From a virus, in IMG/VR virus record IMGVR_UViG_3300000970_000001, positions 1 to 64,000 of that record: a stretch of DNA of 64,000 nt. The stretch is one strand, 5' to 3'. How positions within the stretch are numbered: position 1 is the first letter of the stretch; each line of letters opens with the position of its first letter. Shown here piece after piece: positions 3,065 to 37,973 of the stretch. The position numbers and the translations under genes are program-made. The notes under the pieces were generated by a model. The model saw nothing but the letters and a program-made list of their open reading frames with translations, ran no database searches and was not told the origin of the DNA.

Positions 3065-4519
3065 ATGGACATTCAAAGCTTAAAAACTATTGTACTACCG
3101 AGACGTAGAGCAAATCCTAAAGGAGCATCAGCTACAAACACTTTTAATCCACAACAGGTGGATCAAGTTTTGTCAGCTCAAGATTACAGAGCACACTTAG
3201 TAGATTTATTTGTAGACAGAGCTTCTCAAGATTCTAGAGAACTGATGACTGATCTATTTAAGTATGATTCAGACATCTCTGCCACAGTTAATGCCTACCT
3301 AACAATTGCTAATACGACTCCTACATTTACAGTATATAACATGGAAGATGAACTAGATCGTGATGGTCTTAAACTTCTTGACCAAGTTATTCGGGCAATG
3401 ACACAGAGACAAGATTATTCTACAGGATTTAAGTTAACTCCTAACCTAGAACAAATATCTGAGTCACTTCGTTACATGATATTACTCCGTGGTGGGTTTG
3501 GAGCAGAACTTGTTTTCGATAAGTTTCTTGTTCCTGCCAGTCTTCGTCATATCGATGTTGCCACTATCGAGTGGTATGAAAGAACACCTGGGGATTATAA
3601 ACCAGAACAAGAGACAGAAAATTCTAGTGATCCAGTATTATTAGATTTACCTAATATATTCTTTAAATTCTATCGTCAAAATCCTACTGAAATTTATGCA
3701 GAGTCTCCTTTTGTTGCTTCAATCAATACTGTGGCAGCGCGTCAACAGGTTATTAATGACCTCTACCGAATTATGCAAAAAACTGGTTATCCAAGGATGG
3801 AACTGGTAGTTGTTGAAGAGGTTCTTCGTAAGAATGCTCCAGCTAATCTTAGCGATAACGAATTAAAAGTATGGATGAATACTCGTCTAACTGAACTGGC
3901 ACAAGGAGTTGCTAATCTTAGACCTGATGCCGCCTATGTTCACTTTGATGCTGTAGAAGCTAAAATTCTAAACGAGGGAGGTCCTGCTAAGTCACTTAAC
4001 GCAACTGATATTATCGAGGTATTAAATGGACAGAACCAAGCCGCTCTTAAGACTATGGCAACAGTTATTGGACGAGGTGAGTCTGGAATTAATACGGCTT
4101 CAGTTGAGGCTAGAGTATTTTCGATGTCAGCTGATAGTATTAATGTACCAGTGGCATCCTTATATGAGGATATGTTTACTCTCGCTTTAAGACTTCAAGG
4201 TTTTGATGGTTATGTTAAGTGTAAATTTGCTCCAGCTGAGCTTAGACCTGACTTAGAACTAGAACCACAACGTATTATGAAACAAACTAGAGGGCTTAAA
4301 GATTTATCTCTTGGATTAATCACAGATGACGAGTATCATATGATGATGTACGGTAGACCGAGGCCTGATGCTTCACCTGAACTTTCAGGAACTAATTTTG
4401 AAACAGCACAAGCCTCTGTTGATGCCGAAGGTATTAGTCCAAATAGCGATCCACTAGGTCGCTCAGTTGCTTCCGAAGGAAGTACAAAACAAGCACGATC
4501 AAATGAGGTTAAGAAATAA
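3065..4519 (+). CDS. portal protein
   Basis: 484-aa ORF directly downstream of terL. Size and position are typical of portals; no motif was verified by hand. Confidence 0.7.
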   Translation: MDIQSLKTIVLPRRRANPKGASATNTFNPQQVDQVLSAQDYRAHLVDLFVDRASQDSRELMTDLFKYDSDISATVNAYLTIANTTPTFTVYNMEDELDRDGLKLLDQVIRAMTQRQDYSTGFKLTPNLEQISESLRYMILLRGGFGAELVFDKFLVPASLRHIDVATIEWYERTPGDYKPEQETENSSDPVLLDLPNIFFKFYRQNPTEIYAESPFVASINTVAARQQVINDLYRIMQKTGYPRMELVVVEEVLRKNAPANLSDNELKVWMNTRLTELAQGVANLRPDAAYVHFDAVEAKILNEGGPAKSLNATDIIEVLNGQNQAALKTMATVIGRGESGINTASVEARVFSMSADSINVPVASLYEDMFTLALRLQGFDGYVKCKFAPAELRPDLELEPQRIMKQTRGLKDLSLGLITDDEYHMMMYGRPRPDASPELSGTNFETAQASVDAEGISPNSDPLGRSVASEGSTKQARSNEVKK

Positions 4520-4782
4520 TGGCACGTTCATATACAGATAAAGATAGCGTAATGGCTCCTTTCCAGATTGGTTTTGACGTTGTAGTACATGCAACCGATC
4601 CACTAGATCATACAACAAGGTCTATTATGGTTAGCGATGATGACGCAACTATTACAGGTTATTTAGAGGGTAACTCTGATACCCCACATACAACTCTACC
4701 TTTAAAAGCGGGTGTCTATCATCCTTTTGCTTTTACTAGAATTACAGCTATCTCTGCAGGTACAGCGAAAGGTTATTGCTAA
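4519..4782 (+). CDS. hypothetical head-module protein
   Basis: 87-aa ORF; its start overlaps the portal stop (ATAATG). Confidence 0.5.
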   Translation: MARSYTDKDSVMAPFQIGFDVVVHATDPLDHTTRSIMVSDDDATITGYLEGNSDTPHTTLPLKAGVYHPFAFTRITAISAGTAKGYC

Positions 4783-6540
4783 ATGATACGCGTAGGACCT
4801 TCTATTGCTGCAGGTGTTAATCTTTTACCATTTATTAACGTGGGTTTTAATCCTACTTTGATAAGTGGTAACAGGCTATGGTTGGATGGTGACGACAGCT
4901 CTACTATTACACATACAAATGGTCGCGTTAGCCAATGGCGTGATAAAAGTGGATTGGCAAATCATGCTAATCAAGGTAATACATCTTTCCAACCTAGAAC
5001 AGGTGTGAGAACTCTTAATGGTAAAAATGTTGTTGTCTCTGACGATGACTCTATTATGGATTGTGGTGATATTGGTGTTGATCCTCAGGATCAAAACCTT
5101 ACTGTAATAGCAGTTTTTGCCAGTGATGATTGGGGGTCATTTGGTACAGTATACTCTTGGGGCGGTTCACAATTAAGAGCTTTACACAATAGTGCTAATA
5201 GGTTGCAGTTTTTAGCAAACGGTAATACTAACATATTGGCTTCTAGTGGCAACGCTACTGGTACTCGACCTTATATATCTACTTTAGCTTTAGATGCTAC
5301 GACTATAGATTTTAGGTATGACGAAACTGCAGATAACAGCACTGGTTCAGTCGCTCTAAATAGTTCGAATAATTTTAATATTTTCTGTAACACTACTTCT
5401 AGTAATACTTTCTCATTAGATGGTTACATGGCTGAGATCATGGTTTATGATCGTAAGTTAACCCTATCTGAAATTCAGCAAATTGAAACATATCTTGCTG
5501 CTAAGTGGCAAATTGCTTCACAAATAGATAATGACTTTGTACTTGTTGGTTCTGGTCAGTCTAATATGGAGTATCACTTCACTCAAGGTGGAGGAACTGC
5601 AGCAGTTGCACTTGAGAATACATTATCAAGTTATTATAGTGGTAATGTAGAATTTATAAATGGGGCTAACTCAGCTTCTTCATTAATTAAATCAAATGCA
5701 GCTACGAACTTTACTGATAGATGGTACTACGATCCAGTCTTGGACGAATTCGGTCCTAGTTACGATAAATTTGTAACAGCAGTTACAGGTAAAAATGTAA
5801 AAGGAATTATATGGGATCAGGGAGAAACTGATGCTAGTGCAATAGGACGTTTTACAGGTACTTATGATCACGCTAAAGCTGTAGAGTACAAAGCAGGTTT
5901 AATAACTTTGTTTGAGAAGTATAGAGAACTATTGGGTAATGTTCCTATCTATATTGTACCTTTAGGTCGCCGTGGAGGTGGTCAGGGTGTAAGCTGGACT
6001 TCCTTAACACTAATGCAATATGAAGTTGCTGCTGAAATGGATAATGTATTTGTTACAGCTCCTAAGCATAACTATACAATTGGTGATGCTCTCCATATTG
6101 AGATTGGGGCAACTCGTGACTCATTAGCAACTTATCAAGCTCATTACGTTGCTAAAACTATGGGTCGCGCAGGAGCGACACCTATAGATGGTCCAACTTT
6201 CCTTGATGCGACATTATCAGGTACAACAATTGATATCGATGTAGGACATATCGGAGCTGCGGTTCTAGATGCTTCTCCTGCTAGTGGAATAGAAGGTTTT
6301 TCTGTATTTGACGGAGATTATCCTGGAAATCTAAATGATGGTGTAGGGGCTTCTGAAATTGCAATTACTGCTGCCACTAGGGTGTCTGACACTGTTCTAA
6401 GACTAACACTTTCTTCAGCACCAGTTTCTGCAACTCCTCATGTGATATATGGTTATGATGCTTTTGATAATGCTGACGTAGCTAACTTACCAAAAGACAC
6501 TTTAGGCTTTGCCTTACCCGTAACTGCAATGGAGCTATAG
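4783..6540 (+). CDS. LamG/concanavalin-like lectin domain fused to a SASA/SGNH-type carbohydrate O-acetylesterase domain
   Basis: The N-terminal part carries GNRLWLDGDDSS...GRVSQWRDKSGLANHANQ and GYMAEIMVYDRKLTLSEIQQIETYLAAKW, the LamG_3 pattern. The middle part carries VGSGQSNMEY and IIWDQGETDA, the GQSNM / W-QGE-D signature of sialate-type O-acetylesterases. Confidence 0.65.
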   Translation: MIRVGPSIAAGVNLLPFINVGFNPTLISGNRLWLDGDDSSTITHTNGRVSQWRDKSGLANHANQGNTSFQPRTGVRTLNGKNVVVSDDDSIMDCGDIGVDPQDQNLTVIAVFASDDWGSFGTVYSWGGSQLRALHNSANRLQFLANGNTNILASSGNATGTRPYISTLALDATTIDFRYDETADNSTGSVALNSSNNFNIFCNTTSSNTFSLDGYMAEIMVYDRKLTLSEIQQIETYLAAKWQIASQIDNDFVLVGSGQSNMEYHFTQGGGTAAVALENTLSSYYSGNVEFINGANSASSLIKSNAATNFTDRWYYDPVLDEFGPSYDKFVTAVTGKNVKGIIWDQGETDASAIGRFTGTYDHAKAVEYKAGLITLFEKYRELLGNVPIYIVPLGRRGGGQGVSWTSLTLMQYEVAAEMDNVFVTAPKHNYTIGDALHIEIGATRDSLATYQAHYVAKTMGRAGATPIDGPTFLDATLSGTTIDIDVGHIGAAVLDASPASGIEGFSVFDGDYPGNLNDGVGASEIAITAATRVSDTVLRLTLSSAPVSATPHVIYGYDAFDNADVANLPKDTLGFALPVTAMEL

Positions 6541-10463: not shown

Positions 10464-11192
10464 GTGCAGTATGTTTTAAAAGATACTGACGCAAGCTTTC
10501 ATTTAGATTTTCTATTAGATGGAAACCTTGTTGTCCCTGATACATCATCTGTTAGATTAACTCTTACAGAGCCTGATGGAACAGTACTAACAGGTTATAA
10601 CGATATTAGTCTCTCTCCTACTGTAGGAGAGAGCTTCGTTGTGTTTGAAACAACAGCTCTTGCAAACTCTAAAAGTAATGACTATGAACTTAGACAAGCT
10701 AGAGTAGATTATACTGTAGATACTAGACCTTTTACTCAATTTTTAAACTATAGAATAGTCGATAGAATTAACTTACCTGTTAATCCAACTGATGTTAGAA
10801 AAGTTTTAGGTATATCGGATGACGAATGGCCTGATTCTAATGTTGATATTGTAGATGCTTACTCTAAAGTTCAGCTTGAAGAAACTCTTGATGGTGTAGA
10901 TACAGAAGCTATATTGAATGGTGGGACTGCATTGGTATCATATTTAATTGAAGCTATTAAATTAAAAGCTGCTATTGATATTCTACCTGTTTTAGAACTT
11001 GTTGCTACTCAGAGTCAACAAGCTGATAATGTTTCTTTCAGACGTTTTGAAAAAGTTGACTTTCCTTACATAAGGAAAAACCTTATGGACAGATACTCTA
11101 TAGCTATATCACAAACTGTAGGACAGGCTGATATTACTCTTACGTTAGCAACTACTGGTGTAGGTACAGATGCGGTGACTGGAGACGGTTAA
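10464..11192 (+). CDS. hypothetical head-tail connector module protein
   Basis: 242-aa ORF with a GTG start, in a co-oriented gene run between capsid and tail genes. Confidence 0.45.
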   Translation: MQYVLKDTDASFHLDFLLDGNLVVPDTSSVRLTLTEPDGTVLTGYNDISLSPTVGESFVVFETTALANSKSNDYELRQARVDYTVDTRPFTQFLNYRIVDRINLPVNPTDVRKVLGISDDEWPDSNVDIVDAYSKVQLEETLDGVDTEAILNGGTALVSYLIEAIKLKAAIDILPVLELVATQSQQADNVSFRRFEKVDFPYIRKNLMDRYSIAISQTVGQADITLTLATTGVGTDAVTGDG

Positions 11193-12406: not shown

Positions 12407-12859
12407 ATGAGCTATGAAAATATACATTTAAATATTAATGCATCGTTATTAAAAGTGTGTAAAGATTTTATTCTGTCAGAAGGCCTTTCAGCAGATTATG
12501 ATGTTTTTGACTTTGACGCTCATGCATCATTAAACGATTTACCAAATAAAGGTTTAATCGGGATTGCTGAGTACTCTTTGGCTGAGGATAGTGACATGTA
12601 TTCAGGTGAGTGTATGATTGTAATATCAACTATGCAAGATGACTTGAACTTGCAAAAATTAAAACCTCTTGTGTCGAAGATGTTTTCAAAATGGAGAACA
12701 GGACAAGAAATAGCAGCTGTTACCGCTGATAACGGAACATTAATAGGTAACATAAAGGTGCATAGTGGTACTGAGGCTCTATCAGTAGCTAGAACTCAAT
12801 CCAGACCTTTACAAATGATAAGTGTTAGTTTTGGTCTGGCAACTGTTTTGTCGCCATAG
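12407..12859 (+). CDS. hypothetical tail completion-region protein
   Basis: The track ORF starts at TTG 12398. ATG 12407, just after the upstream stop, is preferred. Confidence 0.45.
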   Translation: MSYENIHLNINASLLKVCKDFILSEGLSADYDVFDFDAHASLNDLPNKGLIGIAEYSLAEDSDMYSGECMIVISTMQDDLNLQKLKPLVSKMFSKWRTGQEIAAVTADNGTLIGNIKVHSGTEALSVARTQSRPLQMISVSFGLATVLSP

Positions 12860-29824: not shown

Positions 29825-30028
29825 ATGTTAAAGAAGATTATATTAGGTCAAGTCCGTCACTTGCTCAGCGCATCTGGTGGAGGTTTTTATATTTGGTTAA
29901 TGAACCATGGCGTGGAACCGACTGATATTGAAGCAATCGCAACTGGAGTAATTGCAGTAATTGCTGCAATCTGGTCTGGTTATGATAAATACCAACAAGA
30001 AAAACTAAAACAGAAAGAGAAAGTATAA
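29825..30028 (+). CDS. putative holin
   Basis: 67 aa with two hydrophobic segments and a charged C-terminus (KYQQEKLKQKEKV). RBS is AAAGGAGAAG, adjacent to the endolysin. Confidence 0.5.
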   Translation: MLKKIILGQVRHLLSASGGGFYIWLMNHGVEPTDIEAIATGVIAVIAAIWSGYDKYQQEKLKQKEKV

Positions 30029-30357
30029 TGAAAAAACTAGTACTAATTCCTTTAGTTCTTGTTTTGGGAGCATGTGCATCACTAGGTCTAGAACGACCAA
30101 GTTGTTACGAATCTGTTGCCATTTCTAAGATCGCTATTGGAGAAGCTTTTAAAACTGCTACTAAACTTAGCAATGAAGAAGTAATTTCTATCGGAGCTGC
30201 TGAAGACACGTTAACTGCGTTGGATCAAGCTGATTCTGCAACTGACAGTGCATCTGCGCTATGTCCTATTGATGATCGTGCTGCTCGTGACTATCTACTT
30301 GTCGCTCGTGACTTGATTACTAATGCAACTGAACTAATGGAGGTTTCTGATGAGTAA
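30028..30357 (+). CDS. lipoprotein (possible outer-membrane spanin component)
   Basis: Signal peptide with lipobox LVLGAC; located in the lysis cassette. Confidence 0.5.
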   Translation: MKKLVLIPLVLVLGACASLGLERPSCYESVAISKIAIGEAFKTATKLSNEEVISIGAAEDTLTALDQADSATDSASALCPIDDRAARDYLLVARDLITNATELMEVSDE

Positions 30358-30589
30358 AGTAAAAGACATCCTAGAAGATGTAGACTTAGACAGAGTTTAC
30401 CTCTCAGTAGGAATTGCAATGGATTTGATTGCTGCTGGTAATGAAATCCTAAAACTCCTAAAAGCTGGAGAAGAAGTGGATGAGATCAAACTAATTGAAT
30501 TGATTGAAGTTCACAATAACGCTAAAGAGGCCGCACGAAATGAATTGATTGCCTCAATTAAAAAGCGTAAAGAAGCTAAAAAAGTTTAG
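30350..30589 (+). CDS. hypothetical helical protein in the lysis cassette
   Basis: 79-aa ORF overlapping the lipoprotein gene end. No TM segment was seen, so an i-spanin role is unsupported. Confidence 0.4.
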   Translation: MSKVKDILEDVDLDRVYLSVGIAMDLIAAGNEILKLLKAGEEVDEIKLIELIEVHNNAKEAARNELIASIKKRKEAKKV

Positions 30590-30601
30590 CCCAAGCCCAC
30601 T

Positions 30602-30630
30602 AGCCCTCACCATTGGTGAGGGCTTTTTAT
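30602..30630 (+). terminator. intrinsic terminator after the lysis cassette
   Basis: Stem AGCCCUCACC/GGUGAGGGCU, loop AUU, then UUUUUAUU. Confidence 0.8.
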
Positions 30631-30651
30631 TAACCAATAGAAAGTCACTAC

Positions 30652-31329
30652 ATGAAAAAGAAGAACTCTGTAAACGATGCTCAACGAGCAAACAAAATCA
30701 ATCTCTATCCTAAAAACAATAAACAAAGAGAGTATATAGAAGCCCTTCGAAATCATGACCAAGTATTTGCAATAGGACCTGCAGGAGCAGGTAAAACTTA
30801 TATTCCTACTATAATGGCAACTCAAGCCTATCTACGTGGTGACATCAAAAAGATAATCCTTACACGTCCTGCTGTTGCTGTTCAGGAAGAACATGGATTC
30901 TTACCTGGCTCCATTGACAAAAAGTTAGCCCCGTGGGTGTTACCAGTTACAGAAGTGATTGAGGAAGCCTTAGGTTCTAAACAACGCTTCCTTGACATGC
31001 TCAAGGCAGGTGACCTTGAGGTGGCTCCTTTTACTTATATGAGGGGTAGAACCTTCAAGGATGCCTTTGTCCTATTGGACGAGGCTCAGAACACCACAAA
31101 GGAACAGATGAAGATGTTCTTAACACGATTGGGAGAGAACGCCAAAGTTGTCATCAGTGGTGATATCGAACAGTCTGATATCAGAGCGGGGAGTGGACTA
31201 GCAATGGCTGTTGATCTTATTGACACTCACGATATTCCAGCCGCTAAGGTTGAGTTTAGAAGTAACCATGTGGTTCGTTCAGAATTGTGTAAGATGTGGG
31301 TTGAGGCATTTGAAAAAGGCCCCGATTAA
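30652..31329 (+). CDS. phoH: PhoH-like ATPase
   Basis: 225 aa with Walker A GPAGAGKTY and LLDEAQN; size typical of phage PhoH. Confidence 0.88.
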   Translation: MKKKNSVNDAQRANKINLYPKNNKQREYIEALRNHDQVFAIGPAGAGKTYIPTIMATQAYLRGDIKKIILTRPAVAVQEEHGFLPGSIDKKLAPWVLPVTEVIEEALGSKQRFLDMLKAGDLEVAPFTYMRGRTFKDAFVLLDEAQNTTKEQMKMFLTRLGENAKVVISGDIEQSDIRAGSGLAMAVDLIDTHDIPAAKVEFRSNHVVRSELCKMWVEAFEKGPD

Positions 31330-31342
31330 CGGGACCTTTTAT
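31318..31342. terminator. bidirectional hairpin at the convergence of the plus and minus transcription units
   Basis: GGCCCCG AUUAA CGGGACC with A-run and U-run flanks. It includes the phoH stop codon. Confidence 0.6.
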
Positions 31343-31497
31343 ATTCTTTATCTCGTCCGTTCTGTTGCTAAGTGGATGAATCTCCGAATTAGGCAGCTAG
31401 TGCGTAATCCATATTGCTATTATCATTTGCGATTAAGTAATACTAACATAGTATTTATCTTAAAATCAAGCGTTAATTAATACAATAATATTATTTA

Positions 31498-31574
31498 TGG
31501 TACTAGCGGAAGGATTCGAACCCTCAACCTGCGGAGTAGAAATCCGCTGCTCTAGTCCGTTGAGCTACGCTAGC
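31498..31574 (-). tRNA. tRNA-Arg (anticodon UCU)
   Basis: Hand-folded cloverleaf: acceptor GCUAGCG/CGCUAGU (G1-U72), anticodon stem-loop GCGGA UUUCUAC UCCGC, T-loop UUCGAAU, encoded CCA. Confidence 0.85.
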
Positions 31575-31637
31575 ATGTTGGAGGAAGGCACTGGTCCCGA
31601 TCCAGATGGTACATTTAAACCACGCAATGATTAGCAA

Positions 31638-31991
31638 TCACCCACAGCGACCCCGCTGTTTTACCTTCCATTCAATTCTCTGATACCACATATCATACTT
31701 ATAGGCTAACTTCCAGAGTGAGTTTTTAATTTTCCACAATCGATACTGCCACCCATTATTAATAAAAGCTTCTGTTGACATCTTAGGTACAGGAAACCAA
31801 GGAGGGCCATCTAAGTTACGAATAGGCATCAAGTCATTTGCATCAATGGTTAGAATAAGTTCCAACTCTGTCATACGTTCTTCAGGTGTTAGAGTATACC
31901 AATCTTCTCCTGTAGTTACGTGGAATCTTTTTATTCCTTTAGATTCCAAATGATCTGCTAAATCATCTCTTCTCTGTTCTAGTGTTTTCAT
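31638..31991 (-). CDS. hypothetical protein
   Basis: 117-aa ORF inside the tRNA island with a 4-nt overlap with the upstream ORF. Confidence 0.5.
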   Translation of the reverse strand: MKTLEQRRDDLADHLESKGIKRFHVTTGEDWYTLTPEERMTELELILTIDANDLMPIRNLDGPPWFPVPKMSTEAFINNGWQYRLWKIKNSLWKLAYKYDMWYQRIEWKVKQRGRCG

Positions 31992-32290
31992 ACTAATAGT
32001 CCCATTACGTATCGCGTTTCATTAAGTAACTCTTTTGGTATTCTAACATCTCCATTATGAAATGCTTTTAAAATTAAGTTAGCTGCTTTTTGTAGTCTTT
32101 GTTGATGTCTTATTTCCTCTTTAAAAAACTTACCAACATCAGGTAATTTTTTATATGTATGATATAATTGTTCAGTATTAGCAAACTCTTTTCTAAATAA
32201 TTTTAAGTTGTCTTCGTCTTCTTGAGTAGGACAGTTATAAAAGTTTATTATGTTTCCATAGTGTGTCCTAGTAATTATCATATCAACCAT
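31988..32290 (-). CDS. hypothetical protein
   Basis: 100-aa ORF starting 14 nt downstream of tRNA-Ser. Confidence 0.5.
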   Translation of the reverse strand: MVDMIITRTHYGNIINFYNCPTQEDEDNLKLFRKEFANTEQLYHTYKKLPDVGKFFKEEIRHQQRLQKAANLILKAFHNGDVRIPKELLNETRYVMGLLV

Positions 32291-32304
32291 GTTCTTGCTC
32301 CTAG

Positions 32305-32398
32305 TGGCGGTGGGTTAGGGGATCGAACCCTAAAGGGAGTATTAGTCCTCGCTGGTTTTCAAGACCAGTGCAGTCGCCAGCCATCTGCTTGACCCACC
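32305..32398 (-). tRNA. tRNA-Ser (UGA), long variable arm
   Basis: 94 nt: acceptor GGUGGGU/ACCCACC, anticodon stem-loop CUGGU CUUGAAA ACCAG, T-loop UUCGAUC, G73, CCA. Confidence 0.85.
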
Positions 32399-32406
32399 TT
32401 ATTATA

Positions 32407-32484
32407 TGGCACTACCCGTAGGACTCGAACCTACAACCTTCGGATTCGTAATCCGATGCTCTAGTCCAATTGAGCTAGAGTAGT
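32407..32484 (-). tRNA. tRNA-Arg (ACG)
   Basis: Anticodon stem-loop UCGGA UUACGAA UCCGA, D-arm GCUC AAUUGGACUA GAGC, T-loop UUCGAGU, CCA. Confidence 0.88.
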
Positions 32485-32522
32485 ATATCAAAACTCATTA
32501 TTGATCCGTACTTGTAGATCAA

Positions 32523-32607
32523 TGGTGGGCGGGTGCAGATTCGAACTACTCCCCCGAAGAGAAAGGCTTTACAGGCCTCGTGCTAGAACCACTAGCTTTA
32601 CCCACCC
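32523..32607 (-). tRNA. tRNA-Tyr (GUA), long variable arm
   Basis: 85 nt: acceptor GGGUGGG/CCCGCCC, anticodon stem-loop GAGGC CUGUAAA GCCUU, CCA. One mismatch at the base of the T-stem. Confidence 0.8.
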
Positions 32608-32612
32608 ATTAT

Positions 32613-32689
32613 TGGGTTGTGTGATGGGATTCGAACCCACAGCCTGATCGATCACACCGATCTGCTCTAACCGTTGAGCTACACACAAC
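32613..32689 (-). tRNA. tRNA-His (GUG) with encoded G-1
   Basis: An extra 5' G pairs with C73, the His hallmark. Anticodon stem-loop GAUCG GUGUGAU CGAUC, CCA. Confidence 0.88.
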
Positions 32690-32696
32690 ATATTTT

Positions 32697-32771
32697 TGGC
32701 GAACGTGAAGGGGATTGAACCCTCATCTTCTTCCTCGACAGGGAAGCGCATTACCAGTCTGCCACACGTTC
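32697..32771 (-). tRNA. tRNA-Asp (GUC)
   Basis: Acceptor GAACGUG/CACGUUC, anticodon stem-loop CUUCC CUGUCGA GGAAG, T-loop UUCAAUC, CCA. Confidence 0.88.
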
Positions 32772-32919
32772 TAATCTAATTTTTAATTTTTGTCTAGTAC
32801 CACTCTTTGTTTTACCTAAGTTAATATTTCTTTTGTAGTACTGACAACATCTACACCACTTATGCTTTTTACCCCTCTTTATGTTTATCATAGATTTCAT
32901 AGTTATTCTCCTTAAAATT

Positions 32920-32994
32920 TGGTGCTAGATGAAAGACTCGAACTCTCAATTCCTGATTACAAAACAGGCGTGTTGCCATTAACACTAAACTAGC
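32920..32994 (-). tRNA. tRNA-Thr (UGU)
   Basis: Anticodon loop UUUGUAA, T-loop UUCGAGU, CCA. One U-U mismatch in each of the acceptor and anticodon stems. Confidence 0.75.
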
Positions 32995-32995
32995 A

Positions 32996-33070
32996 TGGTG
33001 GCCGCACGAAGACTCGAACTTCAATCCTACCCATTATGAGTGGGCAGCTCTACCCCTGAGCTATACGGCT
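32996..33070 (-). tRNA. tRNA with CAU anticodon (Met, initiator-like or Ile2; undecided)
   Basis: Anticodon stem-loop GCCCA CUCAUAA UGGGU. Positions 1:72 are unpaired (A-C), an initiator-like trait, but the 29-31 GGG signature is absent. CCA encoded. Confidence 0.75.
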
Positions 33071-33076
33071 TTAATT

Positions 33077-33151
33077 TGGTATCAGAAACTGGATTCGAAC
33101 CAATATCTTCTAGCTTATGAGACTAGCGCTTTTCCGTTAAGCTATCCTGAT
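33077..33151 (-). tRNA. tRNA with CAU anticodon (Met or Ile2; undecided)
   Basis: Acceptor AUCAGGA/UUCUGAU, anticodon stem-loop CUAGU CUCAUAA GCUAG, T-loop UUCGAAU, CCA. Confidence 0.8.
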
Positions 33152-33599
33152 GTGTTTTATTTCTCCTTATACAGGAAATAGTTGAATGGGAAACATTAAA
33201 TAGTTTACCGATTTCTGTATTATTAATCCCTTCTTTTATCAACTGTCTTACTTTAATTAAATCTGATTGAGTTAATTTACTATTGTTATTCTTAGTTCCT
33301 GTTTGTATTGATCCAAGTCTATTTTTATTTGCTGCGTCTACCATATTATCTTTAGGAGTACCATCAAACAAATGATTAGGATTAACACATTTTGGATTGT
33401 CACACTTATGACAACAAAACTCTTTTGGAAAAACTTTATGTTTTAAGTAAAAAGAATATCTGTGGGCATAGTGTATACCTCTACCTATTTTTCTACGTTT
33501 TACTACACCATACCCGTGGTTATTTAAAGCTCCTAACCATTGCCAGCATTCATTTTCTTTACCTATTTTAACCTTATCCCAGAATAAATTATCTTTCAT
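33123..33599 (-). CDS. HNH homing endonuclease
   Basis: Carries CWQWLGALNNHGYG...YAHRYSF...CHKCDNPKCVNPNHL plus a C-terminal HTH-like NTEIGKLFNVSHSTIS. The last 9 codons and the stop lie inside the tRNA at 33077-33151. Confidence 0.88.
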   Translation of the reverse strand: MKDNLFWDKVKIGKENECWQWLGALNNHGYGVVKRRKIGRGIHYAHRYSFYLKHKVFPKEFCCHKCDNPKCVNPNHLFDGTPKDNMVDAANKNRLGSIQTGTKNNNSKLTQSDLIKVRQLIKEGINNTEIGKLFNVSHSTISCIRRNKTHQDSLTEKR

Positions 33600-33616
33600 T
33601 TTTGTACCTTCTTAAT

Positions 33617-33691
33617 TGGTGCAGGAACAGATGATCGAAATCTGAACTCAAGTTTGGAAGACTTGCACGTTGCCACTTACGCCATTCCTGC
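33617..33691 (-). tRNA. tRNA-Gly (UCC)
   Basis: Acceptor GCAGGAA/UUCCUGC, anticodon stem-loop CAAGU CUUCCAA ACUUG, T-arm CAGAU UUCGAUC AUCUG, CCA. Confidence 0.85.
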
Positions 33692-33700
33692 ACTTAGTAT

Positions 33701-33776
33701 TGGTGGAACCCCTAGGAATCTAACCCAATCCTTCTGGTCTTCAATCAGATGTGCGCAACAGCTACACCAGAGTTCC
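33701..33776 (-). tRNA. tRNA-Phe (GAA), atypical T-loop
   Basis: Anticodon loop UUGAAGA, A31-C39 mismatch, T-loop UUAGAUU (A56), D-loop AGCUGUUGC (G18 U19), CCA. Confidence 0.65.
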
Positions 33777-33782
33777 GTTATT

Positions 33783-33860
33783 TGGCTGGAGTAATTGGAT
33801 TCGAACCAATCTTCATCTCGGTTAACAGCCGAGTGCATTCGCCTAGAATACTATACTCCA
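33783..33860 (-). tRNA. tRNA-Asn (GUU)
   Basis: Acceptor UGGAGUA/UACUCCA, anticodon stem-loop CUCGG CUGUUAA CCGAG, T-loop UUCGAAU, CCA. Confidence 0.88.
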
Positions 33861-33864
33861 AAAT

Positions 33865-33898
33865 TAAAAAACCCTCCTCAAGTACTTCTTGGGAGGGT
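33865..33898 (-). terminator. intrinsic terminator A, abutting the tRNA-Asn 5' end
   Basis: Minus-strand RNA ACCCUCC CAAGAAGUACUUGA GGAGGGU followed by UUUUUUAAUUUU. tRNA-Asn begins right after the U-tract. Confidence 0.75.
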
Positions 33899-33924
33899 GA
33901 AAATAAATAAACATACTTAATTGT

Positions 33925-33981
33925 TTACATACAACGACCCTCATCACCGCTTCTTCCAAAGCCGCGTGTCGAATAATTCAT
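33925..33981 (-). CDS. leader peptide ORF A (MNYSTRGFGRSGDEGRCM), putative attenuator leader
   Basis: 18 codons, starting 16 nt after the receiver-gene stop. 16 of 18 residues belong to the specificities of the downstream tRNA block. GAGGGU (33937-33942) is complementary to the terminator 5' arm ACCCUC. Confidence 0.55.
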   Translation of the reverse strand: MNYSTRGFGRSGDEGRCM

Positions 33982-33997
33982 ATCTGTATGTATACAG

Positions 33998-34336
33998 TTA
34001 AACATTTTCTTTAATCCAGTTTAGAACTTTCTGTTCAAGTTCTGATTTATCTACCATTTGATCCTGTGGTAGGTACAGGTTATTCATGTATAGTAACCCA
34101 GATGTAATTATAAAGTCAACTTCTTTTTTAACTTTAGGTCTAAGATCATCATAAATGGCTTTACCGTTTTCGTTTGATAGGTTTATATCTAATATTATAA
34201 GATCGTATTTGTCTATACTTATGGTAAAACCGTCATAATCACCAACAGTATGTATTTCTATTTCACAATCCTTTAACTTTTCTCTTAGTAATATACGTTC
34301 AGTAGGACAATCGTCAATATATAGAATGTGTTTCAT
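33998..34336 (-). CDS. stand-alone CheY-like receiver domain protein
   Basis: 112 aa from ATG 34336; the longer track ORF runs over two tRNA genes. Sequence MKHILYIDDCP...DLIILDINLSNENG...DFIITSG...VDK carries the acidic pair, phospho-acceptor Asp, Thr/Ser and Lys positions of receiver domains. Confidence 0.6.
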   Translation of the reverse strand: MKHILYIDDCPTERILLREKLKDCEIEIHTVGDYDGFTISIDKYDLIILDINLSNENGKAIYDDLRPKVKKEVDFIITSGLLYMNNLYLPQDQMVDKSELEQKVLNWIKENV

Positions 34337-34359
34337 TCCAGTATAGTAACATATAATAA

Positions 34360-34436
34360 TGGTACACGCCACAGGAATTGAACCTGTCTTAAAGAGGATG
34401 TAAACCTCCCGCTTAACGCCAGTCAGCCAGACGTGT
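34360..34436 (-). tRNA. tRNA-Val (UAC)
   Basis: Acceptor ACACGUC/GGCGUGU, anticodon stem-loop GGAGG UUUACAU CCUCU, T-loop UUCAAUU, CCA. Confidence 0.85.
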
Positions 34437-34442
34437 CTAAAT

Positions 34443-34518
34443 TGGTGGAACCTGTGGGAATCAAACCCACCGCAGTCTGCTTGCAAAGCAGTCTCGCCCT
34501 CTTGGAACATGAGGCCCC
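34443..34518 (-). tRNA. tRNA-Ala (UGC), atypical D-arm and T-loop
   Basis: 76 nt: acceptor GGGGCCU/AGGUUCC with G3-U70, anticodon loop UUUGCAA, T-loop UUUGAUU (U56). The D-arm folds only as GUUC/GGGC with a short loop. CCA encoded. Confidence 0.65.
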
Positions 34519-34524
34519 TTAAAC

Positions 34525-34601
34525 TGGAGATCGCGGTGGGATTCGAACCCACATACTTCTGGGTAAAAACCAGACGTAACAGCCAGTTGTACTACGCGAT
34601 C
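34525..34601 (-). tRNA. tRNA-Lys (UUU)
   Basis: Acceptor GAUCGCG/CGCGAUC, anticodon stem-loop UCUGG UUUUUAC CCAGA, T-loop UUCGAAU, CCA. Confidence 0.85.
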
Positions 34602-34602
34602 T

Positions 34603-34678
34603 TGGTTGTCGATGAAGGATTCGAACCTTCAACCTGCCCCTAATCAGGGGGCTGCACTACCAGTTGTGCTAATCGACA
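34603..34678 (-). tRNA. tRNA-Ile (GAU)
   Basis: Acceptor UGUCGAU/AUCGACA, anticodon stem-loop GCCCC CUGAUUA GGGGC, T-loop UUCGAAU, CCA. Confidence 0.88.
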
Positions 34679-34679
34679 A

Positions 34680-34705
34680 TAAAAAACCCACCTAAAAGGT
34701 GGGTC
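34680..34705 (-). terminator. intrinsic terminator B, abutting the tRNA-Ile 5' end
   Basis: Minus-strand RNA ACCCACC UUUUA GGUGGGU followed by UUUUUUAU. Confidence 0.75.
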
Positions 34706-34737
34706 TAGAATTCTTTTTCTTAAACATACGAAAAGAT

Positions 34738-34800
34738 TCAGCCCACCCCTCTGGTGTCTGCTTTAATCTTAATCGCTACAATGTTGTTTTGCTCTCGCAT
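34738..34800 (-). CDS. leader peptide ORF B (MREQNNIVAIKIKADTRGVG), putative attenuator leader
   Basis: 20 codons with GAGG upstream. Residues 7-14 (IVAIKIKA) use only the four specificities of the tRNAs that follow (Ile, Lys, Ala, Val). The last codons GGGGUGGGC (34741-34749) copy the terminator 3' arm and can pair with its 5' arm. Confidence 0.6.
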   Translation of the reverse strand: MREQNNIVAIKIKADTRGVG

Positions 34801-34820
34801 TTTCTCTATTTCCTCTAACT

Positions 34821-34897
34821 TGGAAGGGCTAACGGGATTCGAACCCGCGTCTACCAATTGAAAGTCGGTATGTCCTTGACCACTAGACGATAGCCCC
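34821..34897 (-). tRNA. tRNA-Glu (UUC)
   Basis: Anticodon stem-loop ACCGA CUUUCAA UUGGU, D-arm GUCUAGUGGUCAAGGAC, T-loop UUCGAAU, G1-U72, CCA. Confidence 0.85.
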
Positions 34898-34929
34898 ATT
34901 AAGTTAGTTTGGTGCTTATCGTTAGGATT

Positions 34930-34959
34930 AATATAACCTAGTTAATATAGGTATGTCAA
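34930..34959 (-). promoter_or_regulatory. sigma70-type promoter TTGACA-N18-TATATT facing tRNA-Glu
   Basis: The exact -35 consensus (plus 34954-34959 TGTCAA) and a 5/6 -10 (plus 34930-34935 AATATA) lie about 30 nt upstream of the tRNA-Glu 5' end. Confidence 0.55.
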
Positions 34960-34973
34960 CTTCTTTATTTAAT

Positions 34974-35047
34974 TGGCACAGGAACAAGGAATCAAACCTC
35001 AGTCTGCGGGGTTGGAAGCCGCCGTGTTATCACTACACTATTCCTGC
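34974..35047 (-). tRNA. tRNA-Trp (CCA), atypical D/T loops
   Basis: 74 nt: anticodon loop UUCCAAC with a C31-C39 mismatch, D-loop AGUGAUA (G18 A19), T-loop UUUGAUU (U56), CCA. Confidence 0.7.
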
Positions 35048-35048
35048 A

Positions 35049-35126
35049 TGGTTGGAGAGGTGGGGTTCGAACCCACATTGCACCCGTTCAAAGCGGGTAG
35101 CCTTACCAACTGTTGGCTACTCTCCA
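35049..35126 (-). tRNA. tRNA-Gln (UUG)
   Basis: U1-A72, anticodon stem-loop ACCCG CUUUGAA CGGGU, T-loop UUCGAAC, CCA. Confidence 0.88.
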
Positions 35127-35129
35127 TAA

Positions 35130-35206
35130 TGGTGCTCCCCCTCAGATTCGAACTGAGACTGTACCGCTTCTAAGGCGGCTCCCTCTGCCAGTTGGGGTAG
35201 AGGAGC
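35130..35206 (-). tRNA. tRNA with Leu anticodon UAG but a short (5-nt) variable loop
   Basis: 77 nt: acceptor GCUCCUC/GGGGAGC, anticodon stem-loop GCCGC CUUAGAA GCGGU, variable ACAGU, T-arm CUCAG UUCGAAU CUGAG, A73, CCA. Confidence 0.7.
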
Positions 35207-35214
35207 GTTATAAT

Positions 35215-35292
35215 TGGTCGGGTGGGCAAGATTCGAACTTGCGATACTCGGCCTCCAAAGCCGATAACTTGACCAGACTAGTTCACCACCCG
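35215..35292 (-). tRNA. tRNA-Pro (UGG)
   Basis: C1-G72, acceptor CGGGUGG/CCACCCG, anticodon stem-loop UCGGC UUUGGAG GCCGA, CCA. Confidence 0.88.
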
Positions 35293-35369
35293 TGGTACTC
35301 TCAGTCAGATTCGAACTGACACTGTGGGGATTTTAAGTCCCCTGCCTCTTCCAGTTGGGCTATGAGAGC
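35293..35369 (-). tRNA. tRNA with Leu anticodon UAA but a short (5-nt) variable loop
   Basis: 77 nt: acceptor GCUCUCA/UGAGAGU, anticodon stem-loop GGGGA CUUAAAA UCCCC, variable ACAGU, T-arm GUCAG UUCGAAU CUGAC, A73, CCA. It is a paralogue of the UAG tRNA. Confidence 0.7.
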
Positions 35370-35370
35370 T

Positions 35371-35410
35371 TAATACAAAAAGCCCCTCTATCTTGCGATT
35401 AGGGGCTTTT
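35371..35410 (-). terminator. intrinsic terminator C, abutting the first tRNA of the island
   Basis: Minus-strand RNA AAAAGCCCCU A AUC GCAA GAU AG AGGGGCUUUU UGUAUU, a 7-bp GC stem plus an inner GNRA-capped stem. Confidence 0.75.
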
Positions 35411-35439
35411 AAATTCTTTTGAACTTACTTAGACATACC

Positions 35440-35496
35440 TCAACGCTGTTCTCCTAAAGGGAGCAATTGTTGCAGTTGTGGTAACCAGTTGTTCAT
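35440..35496 (-). CDS. leader peptide ORF C (MNNWLPQLQQLLPLGEQR), putative attenuator leader
   Basis: 18 codons, starting 14 nt after the stop of the 105-aa gene. Residues 4-14 (WLPQLQQLLPL) use only Trp, Leu, Pro and Gln, exactly the specificities of the five tRNAs that follow. Confidence 0.6.
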   Translation of the reverse strand: MNNWLPQLQQLLPLGEQR

Positions 35497-35510
35497 AGTG
35501 TTAATATAGT

Positions 35511-35828
35511 CTATTCTTTGTTGTTTGTCAAATTTAAAAATTCTTCAGGAGTCATTTCAGTAGCAAGAAACTTATTTTCCTTGGTTATATACTGAACAGG
35601 TTCGATTATCTGACTGTCTATGTCAAGATATGCAACGTACCTTAGTATCTTATCCTCATCATTGACAGTTGGTGATTCTATTAAAGCTTTACATGGTGAA
35701 AACAACCAGTATCCATTATCTCCATATTTAGAAGAAAACACATACGTGAAGTCTTCATTAGGTATAATATGAAGAATCTTTACTGATTCATAAGATTCTT
35801 CTGATCCAAGTATAAATTTTTTAGTCAT
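35511..35828 (-). CDS. hypothetical protein
   Basis: 105-aa ORF with RBS AGAGGA. It lies downstream of the tRNA-like RNA and upstream of leader C. Confidence 0.55.
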   Translation of the reverse strand: MTKKFILGSEESYESVKILHIIPNEDFTYVFSSKYGDNGYWLFSPCKALIESPTVNDEDKILRYVAYLDIDSQIIEPVQYITKENKFLATEMTPEEFLNLTNNKE

Positions 35829-35878
35829 AGTTAGTCCTCTGTGGTTTAAGAGTTAAAAGTTAAAGTTACTCAGTAAAT

Positions 35879-35940
35879 TGGTGGAGCCGCTCGGTATTGC
35901 ACCGAGGTCCAGACTAAGCTGTCGATCCTATTTCGGCCCC
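35879..35940 (-). ncRNA. 62-nt tmRNA tRNA-like-domain (TLD)-like RNA lacking an mRNA-like domain
   Basis: Sequence: GGGGCCG AAAUA GGAUCGAC AGCUUAGUCU GGAC CUCGG UGCAAUA CCGAG CGGCUCC ACCA. It has a 7-bp acceptor stem with G3-U70, a T-arm, A73 and encoded CCA. GGAUCGAC and GGAC match tmRNA 5'/3' end motifs (E. coli GGAUUCGAC ... GGAC). Confidence 0.55.
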
Positions 35941-36084
35941 GAATAAGTGAAGAGGGAGAGGTTGGGATACTACTCTCATAGACCATGACCAAATACCTTT
36001 TGATTTACTGATCTAACCTATCGTTACTCTCATGTAGAGTAGCAGTGTCCCGCCCGATAGTACCTTATAACCTTTGGTAAGCTA

Positions 36085-36321
36085 TTATTCAGCCACCTCT
36101 TCATCTGGTATGCCTACCAGATATTCTAATAATTCTCTTGCTTTAAACTCATAAATGTCATACAGGCCATACTCTCGTATTTTTAAACCTGTTACTGATC
36201 CTATTTGAGTTGCGATTACATTAGCATATACTCTTGGGTATCGCAACTCAATAATAGGATTTTTTGGATTAATTTTAATCGCTTCCTGACATGTTTCTTT
36301 TAACCCTCGCAAGCGATACAT
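36085..36321 (-). CDS. hypothetical protein
   Basis: 78-aa ORF overlapping the nrdA 3' end by 22 nt. Confidence 0.45.
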   Translation of the reverse strand: MYRLRGLKETCQEAIKINPKNPIIELRYPRVYANVIATQIGSVTGLKIREYGLYDIYEFKARELLEYLVGIPDEEVAE

Positions 36322-37973
36322 CCTTCGTTCTTAGCACGTTCACGCATAAACGCTTGAGCCTCACTTAAGGAGTACTGGTAGTAAAGGGTTTTAAGACCTA
36401 GTTCCCAAGCTGTAAAGTATAGTCTATTGATCTCTCGCGTTGGCATTTGAGGGTCAACCATAATATTAATTGATTGACCTTGGTCAATATAGGGCTGACG
36501 TACTGCTGCCTGATTCAAAATTGCTTCAGGATCAATCTCATATATAGTTTTAAATACTTGTTTTTCTTGATCTGTAAGGAAGTCAAGATGTTGTACTGAA
36601 CCGTCTTGTGCTCTGATTGATAACCATACTTCTTTAGTATTCTGGTTATGACGTTCAAGCACTGGTACAAGATAAGGATTCTTCCAAGTCATTTTATCTT
36701 TGGCACAGTCCTTAACATAGTAATTAGAAAACTCTGGTTCAATTGACATTGATACCTGTCCTAAAATGTATGAAGACGACTTAGTTGGAGCCACCGCTAA
36801 TAAAGTGGTGTTTCTACGACCTTTACCTTTTAGTAACTTAGGTTCACCGAATATTTCTGCAAGTTTTCCACTTGCCTTATATGCATCGTTGTTAATCTTT
36901 TTAAAGATTTCTAAGTTTAACTTAGCAGCTTCTCTACTCTCAAATGGTATTTCATTTTTAAGAAGGTAGGCATGCCATCCAAGTACACCTACTCCAAGTG
37001 CTCTGTGTTCTTTAGCAAACTTACGTACACGTCTCATGAGGTACTGAATTTCCTCATTCATTTCGTCAATTCTCTCTAAGAACTCTGTCACAACTGAGTC
37101 TAAGAACATAGTGAGAACTTCGACAGCATCTGTGTTTTTCCATTCATCATACTCCGAGATATTCATTGAGGATAAAACACACACAAAAGATTCATCGGGC
37201 GAGGATGGTAACGCGATTTCCGTACACATATTTGATGCGTTAATTTTCATGTTATTTTCTTTATAAACATCTACAGTATCTCGGTTCACTGTATCAGTAA
37301 AGAAGATGTACGGTACACCTTTCTCTGATCGGACGCGTAGAACTTCTGCCCAACGGTCCTGTGCTTCTTCATCACCATCACGAACTCTGTTCATGAAGTC
37401 ATCTGATACACAAACACCGTGTTTAGTGTTTTGAATTGTGTGTTCTTCTGTTCCGATTTTAACGAAGTCATAAAAATCTCCGTGATCTATATCTATGTAA
37501 GGAGAGAATTGACCTCGTCTTACTGATCCTTGAGACACTACGTTAGCCACTTTGTCAAACATACCCATAAAGTGTACGGCTCCAAATGACTCCCCATTAT
37601 TGGAAATCGCTGCACCACGAGGGCGTAACTTACCAAAGTAACCTGATGTACCGCCGCCAAACTTAGACAACATTCCTACTTCAGCAGCCGTAAACAAAAT
37701 GTTTTCCATGTTGTCACTAATGTCTGAGTTAAAGCAGGACACTGGTAAACCTCTTGTGGTTGCATAATTTGACCACACAGGAGAGGACAATGAGTAAAAC
37801 CCACGCGACATGTAGTCGTAGAATTTATCTCCTATACCTTCGATACCATTGATCCCTTGAAATCTATCAGCAATCACTCGAACACGCTCGGGCACGGTCT
37901 GGCCCTCAGCTAGATAATCTCTTTGAATAAATTTTTGTGAGTGTTCGTTCACCCAATTAAAGTTTGTATACAT
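36300..37973 (-). CDS. nrdA: ribonucleotide reductase large subunit, class I, without an ATP-cone
   Basis: 557 aa with GGGTSGYFGKLRPRGA, the active-site NMCTEIALPS and a C-terminal CIACEG Cys pair. Its start abuts the nrdB stop. Confidence 0.9.
   Translation of the reverse strand: MYTNFNWVNEHSQKFIQRDYLAEGQTVPERVRVIADRFQGINGIEGIGDKFYDYMSRGFYSLSSPVWSNYATTRGLPVSCFNSDISDNMENILFTAAEVGMLSKFGGGTSGYFGKLRPRGAAISNNGESFGAVHFMGMFDKVANVVSQGSVRRGQFSPYIDIDHGDFYDFVKIGTEEHTIQNTKHGVCVSDDFMNRVRDGDEEAQDRWAEVLRVRSEKGVPYIFFTDTVNRDTVDVYKENNMKINASNMCTEIALPSSPDESFVCVLSSMNISEYDEWKNTDAVEVLTMFLDSVVTEFLERIDEMNEEIQYLMRRVRKFAKEHRALGVGVLGWHAYLLKNEIPFESREAAKLNLEIFKKINNDAYKASGKLAEIFGEPKLLKGKGRRNTTLLAVAPTKSSSYILGQVSMSIEPEFSNYYVKDCAKDKMTWKNPYLVPVLERHNQNTKEVWLSIRAQDGSVQHLDFLTDQEKQVFKTIYEIDPEAILNQAAVRQPYIDQGQSINIMVDPQMPTREINRLYFTAWELGLKTLYYQYSLSEAQAFMRERAKNEGCIACEG

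Follow-up and report, generated by a model that had tools for sequence, protein, structure and literature searches.

A candidate leader-peptide attenuator upstream of twelve tRNA genes in a tailed-phage genome

A leader reading frame and terminator precede a tRNA series

Here we analyzed a 64,000-nucleotide (nt) stretch of phage DNA (the window; positions 1 to 64,000 of IMG/VR record IMGVR_UViG_3300000970_000001) and, within it, a short element that we call module A, which lies directly upstream of a series of 12 transfer RNA (tRNA) genes. Module A is probably a ribosome-mediated (leader-peptide) transcription attenuator that gates read-through into these phage tRNA genes. This model builds on observed sequence elements, composition and coverage statistics, alternative pairings, and recurrence of the arrangement elsewhere. 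A sequence-only reading of the locus had proposed such an attenuator, with a leader acting as a mixed sensor, and every computational test that we ran supported that proposal in silico. Ribosome-mediated attenuation is a known kind of control; what would be new here is its application to tRNA genes.

The window is part of a tailed-phage genome, with genes for terminase, portal, major head protein, DNA polymerase, helicase, and ligase, and has a G+C content of 38%. Its tRNA cluster spans 35369-31498 on the minus strand, as do all features of the cluster described below. ARAGORN finds 19 tRNAs there, Rfam adds a Phe tRNA (33776-33704), and relaxed ARAGORN confirms Phe(gaa) at 33776-33701 and Tyr(gta) at 32607-32523. 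The twelve downstream tRNAs counted by the sequence-only reading are therefore all present, with default ARAGORN and Rfam recovering 10-11 of them and Phe and Tyr requiring Rfam or relaxed ARAGORN. The gated unit (31498-33860), compiled from the ARAGORN and Rfam tRNAs and the open reading frame (ORF) listing, begins with tRNA-Asn (33860-33783). Its order is Asn, Phe, Gly, an HNH-like ORF, Met(CAU), Met(CAU), Thr, and a 49-amino-acid ORF, followed by Asp, His, Tyr, Arg(ACG), Ser(UGA), two ORFs, and Arg(UCU). The window contains no tRNA for Cys, Ala, or Ser(GCU), which agrees with what had been said of Cys and of the Ser(GCU) decoder.

Leader ORF A has 18 codons (MNYSTRGFGRSGDEGRCM*; 33925-33981), running from ATG 33981 to TAA 33927-33925. 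Its start lies 16 nt past the TAA (34000-33998) of a gene for a receiver-domain-like protein, exactly as first described, and the small hairpin CUGUA-UACA-UACAG reported just upstream of it is found at 33997-33984. The same frame is also open from AUG 34005, within the last codons of the receiver gene, giving an extended leader of 26 codons (MFNCIHTDMNYSTRGFGRSGDEGRCM*; 33925-34005) whose AUG overlaps the end of that gene in AAAAUGUUUAA.

Downstream of the leader, terminator A consists of ACCCUCCCAAG-AAGUA-CUUGAGGAGGGU (33898-33871; -16.1 kcal/mol) followed by U6AAU4 up to tRNA-Asn at 33860. Sequence and folding place the 5' arm, ACCCUCCCAAG, at 33888-33898 and the 3' arm, CUUGAGGAGGGU, at 33871-33882, and the U-tract UUUUUAAUUU (33861-33870) continues the U at 33871 and abuts position 1 of tRNA-Asn. 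This is the layout by which intrinsic terminators are recognized, a GC-rich hairpin directly 5' of a U-tract. A simple terminator scan missed it because the bulged stem falls outside the scan's loop limit of 3-8. We rejected a promoter between terminator A and tRNA-Asn, as the space is too small; the 12 tRNAs thus depend on read-through, barring a weak promoter-like site at 33615-33588 (9/12), the only one inside the gated unit.

Leader composition follows the downstream tRNA set

We compared the leader with the amino-acid frequencies of 49 long ORFs in the window. After the initial Met, 15 of 17 residues belong to the 10 downstream specificities, against an expected fraction of 0.48 (binomial P=6e-4), and none of the 17 comes from the Ile/Lys/Val or Leu/Pro/Gln/Trp sets. 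The earlier observation that the leader draws its residues from the specificities encoded downstream is therefore borne out statistically. Leader A ranks alone at the top of the window's 370 ATG ORFs of 14-24 codons. Its 17 codons cover 10 of the 11 downstream anticodon classes (P=2.8e-4 by simulation), and both Arg isoacceptors are sampled, one by CGC/CGU and the other by AGA.

His had been singled out as the one downstream specificity missing from the leader. This holds for the 18-codon ORF but not for the 26-codon form, which adds a His codon and covers all 11 anticodon classes (P=4e-4). Only this ORF, out of 103 of 24-28 codons in the window, has more than 9 classes. In the longer form 21 of 25 residues fall in the downstream set (P=2e-4), and 17 of 25 codons can be decoded by the downstream tRNAs under standard wobble (P=0.005).

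Predicted alternative structures of the module A RNA

The RNA of module A has a predicted four-strand layout with mutually exclusive 1:2, 2:3, and 3:4 pairings. Region 1 (33970-34009), the anti-antiterminator 5' strand, holds the small hairpin, both AUGs, and the first leader codons. Region 2 (33899-33943) holds the motif GAGGGU, the stop codon, and an inner hairpin, and its partner is either region 1 or the terminator 5' arm; regions 3 and 4 are the two terminator arms. The full-length minimum-free-energy fold consists of the terminator and a long helix between regions 1 and 2. This helix is made of the segments 34009-34003:33905-33899, 34002-33998:33920-33916, 33992-33985:33933-33926, 33981-33978:33937-33934, and 33973-33970:33943-33940. 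Within it, AUGA:UCGU and UUCG:UGAG sequester GAGGGU.

GAGGGU (33942-33937) comprises codons 14-15 and the last base of codon 13. As the sequence-only reading noted, it is complementary to ACCCUC (33898-33893) in the terminator 5' arm, repeats the 3' arm GGAGGGU, and lies 9 nt 5' of the stop codon. That reading treated the contact as a 6-bp pairing. The complementarity is present, but in the predicted fold it is not a bare helix: the pairs close the inner hairpin of an antiterminator segment (33942-33893) of -14.9 kcal/mol, comparable to the terminator, and this structure competes with the long 1:2 helix. In the nascent RNA, before the 3' arm is made, the antiterminator is the minimum-free-energy structure.

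We then masked a ribosome footprint codon by codon and took the probability that the terminator 5' arm is paired upstream as the readout. With the ribosomal aminoacyl (A) site at codons 2-10 this probability is 0.55-0.79, and it falls to 0.00-0.20 at codons 12-19, codon 19 being the stop. When the upstream region was dinucleotide-shuffled 300 times, no shuffle reached a switch of this size (0.59), and the region as a whole is strongly structured (z=-4.55).

Sister modules B and C

The same architecture occurs three times in the cluster, as modules A, B, and C, and each of the three leaders matches only its own tRNA set. Module A comes third in the series of gates, and its set is the broadest of the three.

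Module B (34679-34800) contains the leader MREQNNIVAIKIKADTRGVG* (34800-34738), a terminator (34706-34684), and tRNAs for Ile, Lys, and Val. It is preceded by a promoter (34959-34930) and then tRNA-Glu, and its leader has the Shine-Dalgarno sequence AGAGGA. The regulatory codons are clustered in the leader core ..IVAIKIK.., and the full-length fold places the AUU-AAG-AUU-AAA codons opposite the 5' strand of a predicted antiterminator of approximately 20 bp. As modeled, module B is a textbook 1:2/2:3/3:4 layout. Its terminator gave sub-threshold matches to the Rfam families Phe_leader and Trp_leader (E 0.3-0.9).

Module C (35370-35531) contains a promoter, the leader MNNWLPQLQQLLPLGEQR* (35496-35440), a terminator at about 35409-35379, and five tRNAs, for Leu(UAA), Pro, Leu(UAG), Gln, and Trp. 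The near-consensus promoter TTGACA-17-TATATT (35531-35503) ends 6 nt 5' of ATG 35496, which implies a leaderless mRNA. Twelve of 17 leader residues are in the downstream set (P=1.9e-6), as are 11 of 17 codons (P=1.2e-5), and these are clustered in WLPQLQQLLPL. Upstream pairing of the terminator 5' arm is predicted at 0.04 without a ribosome, about 0.62 with a ribosome stalled at codons 5-13, and 0.2 with one at the stop. In a synonymous-recoding control, the switches of modules B and C were not significantly supported (34/200 and 61/200, respectively).

Analogous modules in viral contigs and bacterial genomes

Searches for relatives of the locus found none. When the region and the whole cluster were compared by blastn with 50,697 phage records, the only matches were at the level of tRNAs. 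The receiver protein has no homolog but itself among 5.8 billion proteins, and none in IMG/VR. The best homologs of the alpha subunit of the ribonucleotide reductase (RNR) are 61-66% identical and lie on contigs without a tRNA cluster, and the cluster is likewise missing from PhoH relatives. A back-translated WLPQLQQLL pattern, taken from leader C, had two matches, both due to chance. No Rfam family matched 33861-34010 at E<=1, and no covariance model for a leader family (Trp_leader, His_leader, Leu_leader, Thr_leader, Phe_leader, and others) matched module A.

We therefore looked for the architecture itself. Two pattern scans of IMG/VR, for a U-tract just 5' of a common tRNA D-arm, yielded 156 loci. 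A script then applied ARAGORN to these loci and required a hairpin at least as stable as -10 kcal/mol, with a U-tract no more than 20 nt from the tRNA series, and ATG ORFs ending no more than 70 nt before the hairpin, which left 13 non-redundant viral cases. In several of the 13, on unrelated contigs of uncultured viruses, promoter, short ORF, terminator, and tRNA series follow one another in this layout, and the leader matches its own tRNA series, with almost all downstream specificities in it. For example, the leader MKTQFGNIVKSFMPQANAPFAQVGIAKWYNGSAKNPDMIS of locus L122 (180-366, plus strand) precedes tRNAs for Phe, Pro, Ala, Trp, Gln, Ile, Lys, Asn, Gly, Val, and Tyr, and carries AAUCCGGAU, which is complementary to the terminator arm, 9 nt 5' of its stop. 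The leader MLNAKLLPGNTGPATEDTPRP of loci L020 (8000-8182, plus strand) and L084 (about 4333-4560, minus strand) matches in 18 of 20 residues a series of Gly, Glu, Leu, Asp, Asn, Met, Ala, Val, Thr, and Pro tRNAs. It is leaderless from a TTGACA-17-TATAAT promoter, with the ATG 5-6 nt past the consensus -10 box.

Four other loci have Bacteroidota-type TAnnTTTG promoters directly 5' of the ATG. In L100 (MKQFKHIQSFIMCSKWADERDICMFRVVDIDLG; 12415-12760, minus strand) all 13 downstream specificities are found in the leader, and in L160 (MRQFTHMTSFTICSKWAEVRDIAVSRGVL; 10560-10810, plus strand), which belongs to the L100 family, all 14 are. L113 (MLVRFRYTKYSSCKGTSSARWDFYI; 2440-2624, plus strand) has seven of seven (Thr, Lys, Arg, Phe, Gly, Tyr, and Cys), and L161 (MKRNHTPFCPQFWFTSQGLPGNAMI; 620-816, plus strand) has three of three (Trp, Cys, and Pro). 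Between the L100 and L160 leaders, K/Q/I-to-T changes coincide exactly with the difference in tRNAs, L160 having a Thr tRNA and fewer for Lys. L020, L122, L100, and L160 belong to no cultured phage.

The leaders of the analogous loci are unrelated in sequence, match no Rfam family, and have in common the property of matching their tRNAs. In a permutation test with the window left out, the sum of own-set scores was 16.2, compared with 5.05+-1.13 for deranged sets (0/20,000), and the corresponding values including the window were 22.4 and 4.5+-1.4 (0/7,495). ORFs on the opposite strand had a score of 4.3. In ribosome-mask folding, most viral loci show the same loss as module A: 5'-arm pairing disappears when the ribosome enters the final third of the ORF.

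A single scan of bacterial genomes found a leader and a four-strand attenuator before a tRNA array in approximately 19 Gemmatimonadota/Longimicrobiales contigs, some of them chromosome-scale (L180, L189, L215, L221, L224, L228-L230, L239, L241, L242, L244, L265, L269, L270, L274, L277, L280, and L291). The array has 16-18 tRNAs, in the order Phe Trp Glu Asp Ala Leu Leu Arg Val Ala Thr Gln Ser Ser Pro Ser. The opening tRNA-Phe is preceded by a conserved leader, ..F/L-W-T-V-S/A-D-T-W-S-P-R-x-R-A-G.. (..WTVSDTWSPR.RAG..). The attenuator strands are CCCGC / GCGGGCGGG / CCCGCCCGCGCC / GGCUCGGGCGGG-U6. In L224 all four strands change together (T/A/T/A), and the 1:2, 2:3, and 3:4 pairings are preserved.

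On balance we favor the view that module A is one case of a widespread, undescribed class, which we call tRNA-sampler leader peptides. In this class a short ORF that samples each downstream tRNA with roughly one codon, together with the terminator after it, would tie transcription of the array to the decoding speed of those codons. Its range would take in phages of Proteobacteria-type and Bacteroidota-type hosts as well as bacterial chromosomes (Gemmatimonadota). The class as such seems real and is unreported in the literature that we searched: full-text searches found no paper tying leader peptides or attenuation to tRNA genes or arrays, and a survey of tRNA arrays mentions neither terminators nor attenuation.

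Proposed mechanism and alternative explanations

In the mechanism that we infer, the leader would be translated in coupling with transcription, and the direction and size of the regulation are likewise inferences. Transcripts would come from the promoter at 34959-34930 and pass through tRNA-Glu, module B, the Ile, Lys, and Val tRNAs, and the receiver gene. Two promoter-like sites (34317-34290 and 34119-34090) fall inside the receiver gene and are probably due to chance. Ribosomes that end the receiver gene at UAA 34000-33998 would re-initiate at AUG 34005 or AUG 33981; the position of AUG 34005 in the last codons of that gene is compatible with termination-reinitiation. Leader A probably starts at 34005 by translational coupling, with receiver-gene translation probably delivering the ribosomes. 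These would then translate a leader with about one codon per downstream tRNA.

If all sampled codons are read fast, the ribosome at UAA 33927-33925 would cover GAGGGU, the terminator (33898-33871) would form, and RNA polymerase would halt in the U-tract that abuts tRNA-Asn. Slow reading of any one sampled codon, its charged tRNA being scarce, would hold the ribosome upstream, where it would mask region 1. Region 2 would then pair with the terminator 5' arm (-14.9 kcal/mol), no terminator would form, and the tRNA genes would be transcribed. As phage tRNAs accumulate the leader would be read faster and the gate would shut, a form of product feedback.

Several points weigh against this model. Neither AUG 33981 nor AUG 34005 is preceded by a Shine-Dalgarno-like motif. 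The phage normally uses such motifs, which precede 36 of its 60 long ORFs, compared with 14% of random positions. Module A sits third, behind terminators B and C, with no convincing promoter between. The 10-amino-acid downstream set makes up 48% of ordinary protein, and under standard wobble the codon-level match of the 18-codon leader is weaker (11/17, P=0.038): GGC, GGU (twice), AGC, UGU, and GAG have no downstream decoder. The enrichment of Gly and Arg may be partly structural, as GC-rich pairing segments need these codons. Most of the sampled tRNAs have a single codon in the leader, where classical leaders have tandem or clustered repeats; in attenuation theory, single regulatory codons give a weak response to a shortage of any one tRNA. 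The switch is only borderline against synonymous recoding, with 11 of 200 recodings of leader A matching its size, and the antiterminator probability without a ribosome is 0.54, unlike classical superattenuation, so that the "off" state is less clear. All folds are equilibrium calculations rather than kinetic ones. Relatives of the phage or locus were absent from the collections searched, so module A has no conservation or covariation to draw on. Finally, six cultured phages with tRNA clusters (KP13-16, VPT02, Aeromonas 4_4572, Vibrio Hades, Cronobacter S13, and Erwinia ChrisDB) have no terminator directly 5' of a tRNA, which may itself explain why the architecture went unnoticed.

It is unlikely, in our view, that the hairpin is a plain terminator of the receiver gene, with constitutive leaky read-through or undetected promoters accounting for tRNA expression and with the ORF and the 6-nt complementarity arising by chance. 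The hairpin does lie approximately 100 nt past a protein gene, and shuffled upstream sequence pairs with the 5' arm 46% of the time. The ordinary share of the downstream set, the modest codon-level P value, and the lack of a Shine-Dalgarno sequence would also fit. However, a plain terminator does not account for a U-tract that abuts a tRNA, for anticodon coverage at P=3e-4, or for a switch that none of the 300 shuffles reproduced. The two sister modules follow no protein gene, one of their leaders matches its set at P=1.9e-6, and the matching of leader to tRNAs recurs at unrelated loci.

A second alternative keeps the attenuator coupled to translation but has it sense the overall capacity of ribosomes or translation, with ribosomes slowed or absent for any reason, and not how well the particular tRNAs encoded downstream are supplied. 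The predicted alternative structures would suit this role equally, a leader of single, mixed codons would respond to any global slow-down, and the antiterminator is predicted to form half the time without a ribosome. Such a sensor would need no matching between leader and tRNAs, yet the three leaders of the cluster are each specific to their own set and avoid the others. In addition, the L100 and L160 leaders differ in step with their tRNA contents, and own sets beat permuted sets. We consider this explanation quite improbable.

The structure could also act independently of translation, either in processing or stability of the tRNA precursor (as a ribonuclease P, E, or III substrate or a 5' protective hairpin) or as the target of a phage or host antitermination factor. 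Both the strength of the structure (z=-4.55) and the missing Shine-Dalgarno sequence suit such a role, and the hairpin is at the 5' end of a tRNA precursor, where ribonuclease P must cut. This would leave the frame-specific match of codons to tRNAs unexplained here and at the other loci, where opposite-strand ORFs have no such match; moreover, the terminator is a canonical intrinsic one and the region belongs to no Rfam family, making this role very improbable. Least credible of all is a functional micropeptide placed before the terminator incidentally: phages commonly encode small proteins, and this ORF is unbroken, but its composition follows the downstream tRNA set rather than any peptide family, the analogous leaders elsewhere match their tRNAs while being unrelated in sequence, and, with no homolog of the receiver gene among the 5.8 billion proteins, there are no relatives to show a conserved peptide.

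Comparison with known regulatory systems

Among enterobacterial attenuators, thrL senses Thr and Ile, and ilvL and ivbL sense Ile, Leu, and Val; trpL, hisL, leuL, and pheL are further examples. Like the thr/ilv-type attenuators, module A has a short ORF rich in codons linked to the regulated genes, would sense more than one amino acid, and has a terminator before the first regulated gene, with exclusive 1:2, 2:3, and 3:4 pairings among which ribosome position decides. The targets differ, being tRNA genes here and biosynthetic enzymes there. The leader of module A has about one codon for each of 10-11 tRNA species, whereas theirs have tandem runs for one to three amino acids. Initiation would be without a Shine-Dalgarno sequence (coupled or leaderless), there is no sequence or Rfam similarity, and product feedback would act through decoding speed rather than amino-acid supply. 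The pheST operon of E. coli, with its pheM leader, is closer in one respect, as leader-peptide attenuation there controls a component of the translation apparatus and senses the level of the charged cognate tRNA. However, pheST has one specificity (a Phe run) and a chromosomal protein-coding target, whereas module A has tRNA targets and many specificities.

In T-box elements, uncharged tRNA is bound directly through the specifier loop and the T-box sequence, and translation is not needed. Module A resembles them in that tRNA status would set the choice between antiterminator and terminator 5' of translation-related genes. Its frame-specific codon content points instead to a translated sensor, and no Rfam T-box match was found in 30000-37000 at E<=1. 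Terminator A shares with an ordinary intrinsic terminator a GC-rich hairpin (of 11 bp) followed by a U-tract, but it abuts a tRNA series that lacks its own promoter and has a competing antiterminator and a matching leader ORF upstream.

Leaderless short ORFs have a precedent in mycobacteria, where polycysteine short ORFs are reported to act as cysteine-responsive attenuators (bioRxiv 10.1101/834739). These resemble module C and L020/L084 in being leaderless regulatory short ORFs; module A itself is not leaderless. They differ in sensing one amino acid, in regulating protein-coding operons, and in belonging to another group of organisms.

Neighboring features

The gene upstream of leader A (33998-34335) encodes a protein of 112 amino acids with a Pfam Response_reg match (E=2.7e-6; 27.9 bits against a cut-off of 30.2), and PF00072 is precomputed for an identical protein. 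It is a stand-alone receiver-domain-like protein inside a tRNA cluster, between tRNA-Val and leader A, with a stop codon that overlaps the start of the extended leader.

An ORF of 158 amino acids (33123-33599) with weak Pfam matches to HNH_3 and HTH_38 is inserted between tRNA-Gly and the pair of tRNA(CAU) genes; it is probably a homing endonuclease within the tRNA array. The two tRNA(CAU) genes are side by side (33077-33151 and 32996-33070), and one of them could be of the Ile2 (lysidine) or initiator type. The extended leader A has one AUA codon, which only an Ile2-type tRNA can read.

Directly 3' of the last tRNA, Arg(UCU), a reading frame at 31389-31430 (context 31351-31481) encodes ANDNSNMDYALAA* with the codons GCA AAU GAU AAU AGC AAU AUG GAU UAC GCA CUA GCU GCC UAA. 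The peptide closely resembles the tag peptide of transfer-messenger RNA (tmRNA). Rfam matches in this region are sub-threshold (tmRNA_permuted, 28.2 bits, E=0.008; alpha_tmRNA, E=0.04), and ARAGORN found no tmRNA beside the tRNA cluster. The region may represent a reduced or divergent phage tmRNA.

An element resembling manA RNA (35947-36122), located between the RNR genes and the tRNA cluster, matches the full length of the model, with 47.6 bits compared with a gathering score of 55.2 (E=4.7e-10). In the contig of L122, sub-threshold matches to YrlA (Y RNA-like) occur inside the tRNA array at 3609-3735 and 5633-5759 on the plus strand (36.9 and 38.6 bits; gathering score 69).

Implications for phage tRNA arrays

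How phage tRNA genes are controlled, and why many phages and bacteria keep tRNA arrays, is poorly understood. If the model is correct, tRNA arrays would be regulated by the decoding speed of their own codons, a product-feedback loop built from a classical attenuator. This would explain the paradoxical terminators set against the 5' ends of tRNA series and would assign a function to a class of unannotated small ORFs. Such leaders would also be natural multi-tRNA sensors for use in synthetic biology. For the phage, the model predicts higher expression of its tRNAs whenever codon mismatch, host shut-off, or anticodon nucleases deplete those of the host. Array expression would be demand-driven and self-limiting, and may be a phage answer to the depletion of tRNAs by host defenses.

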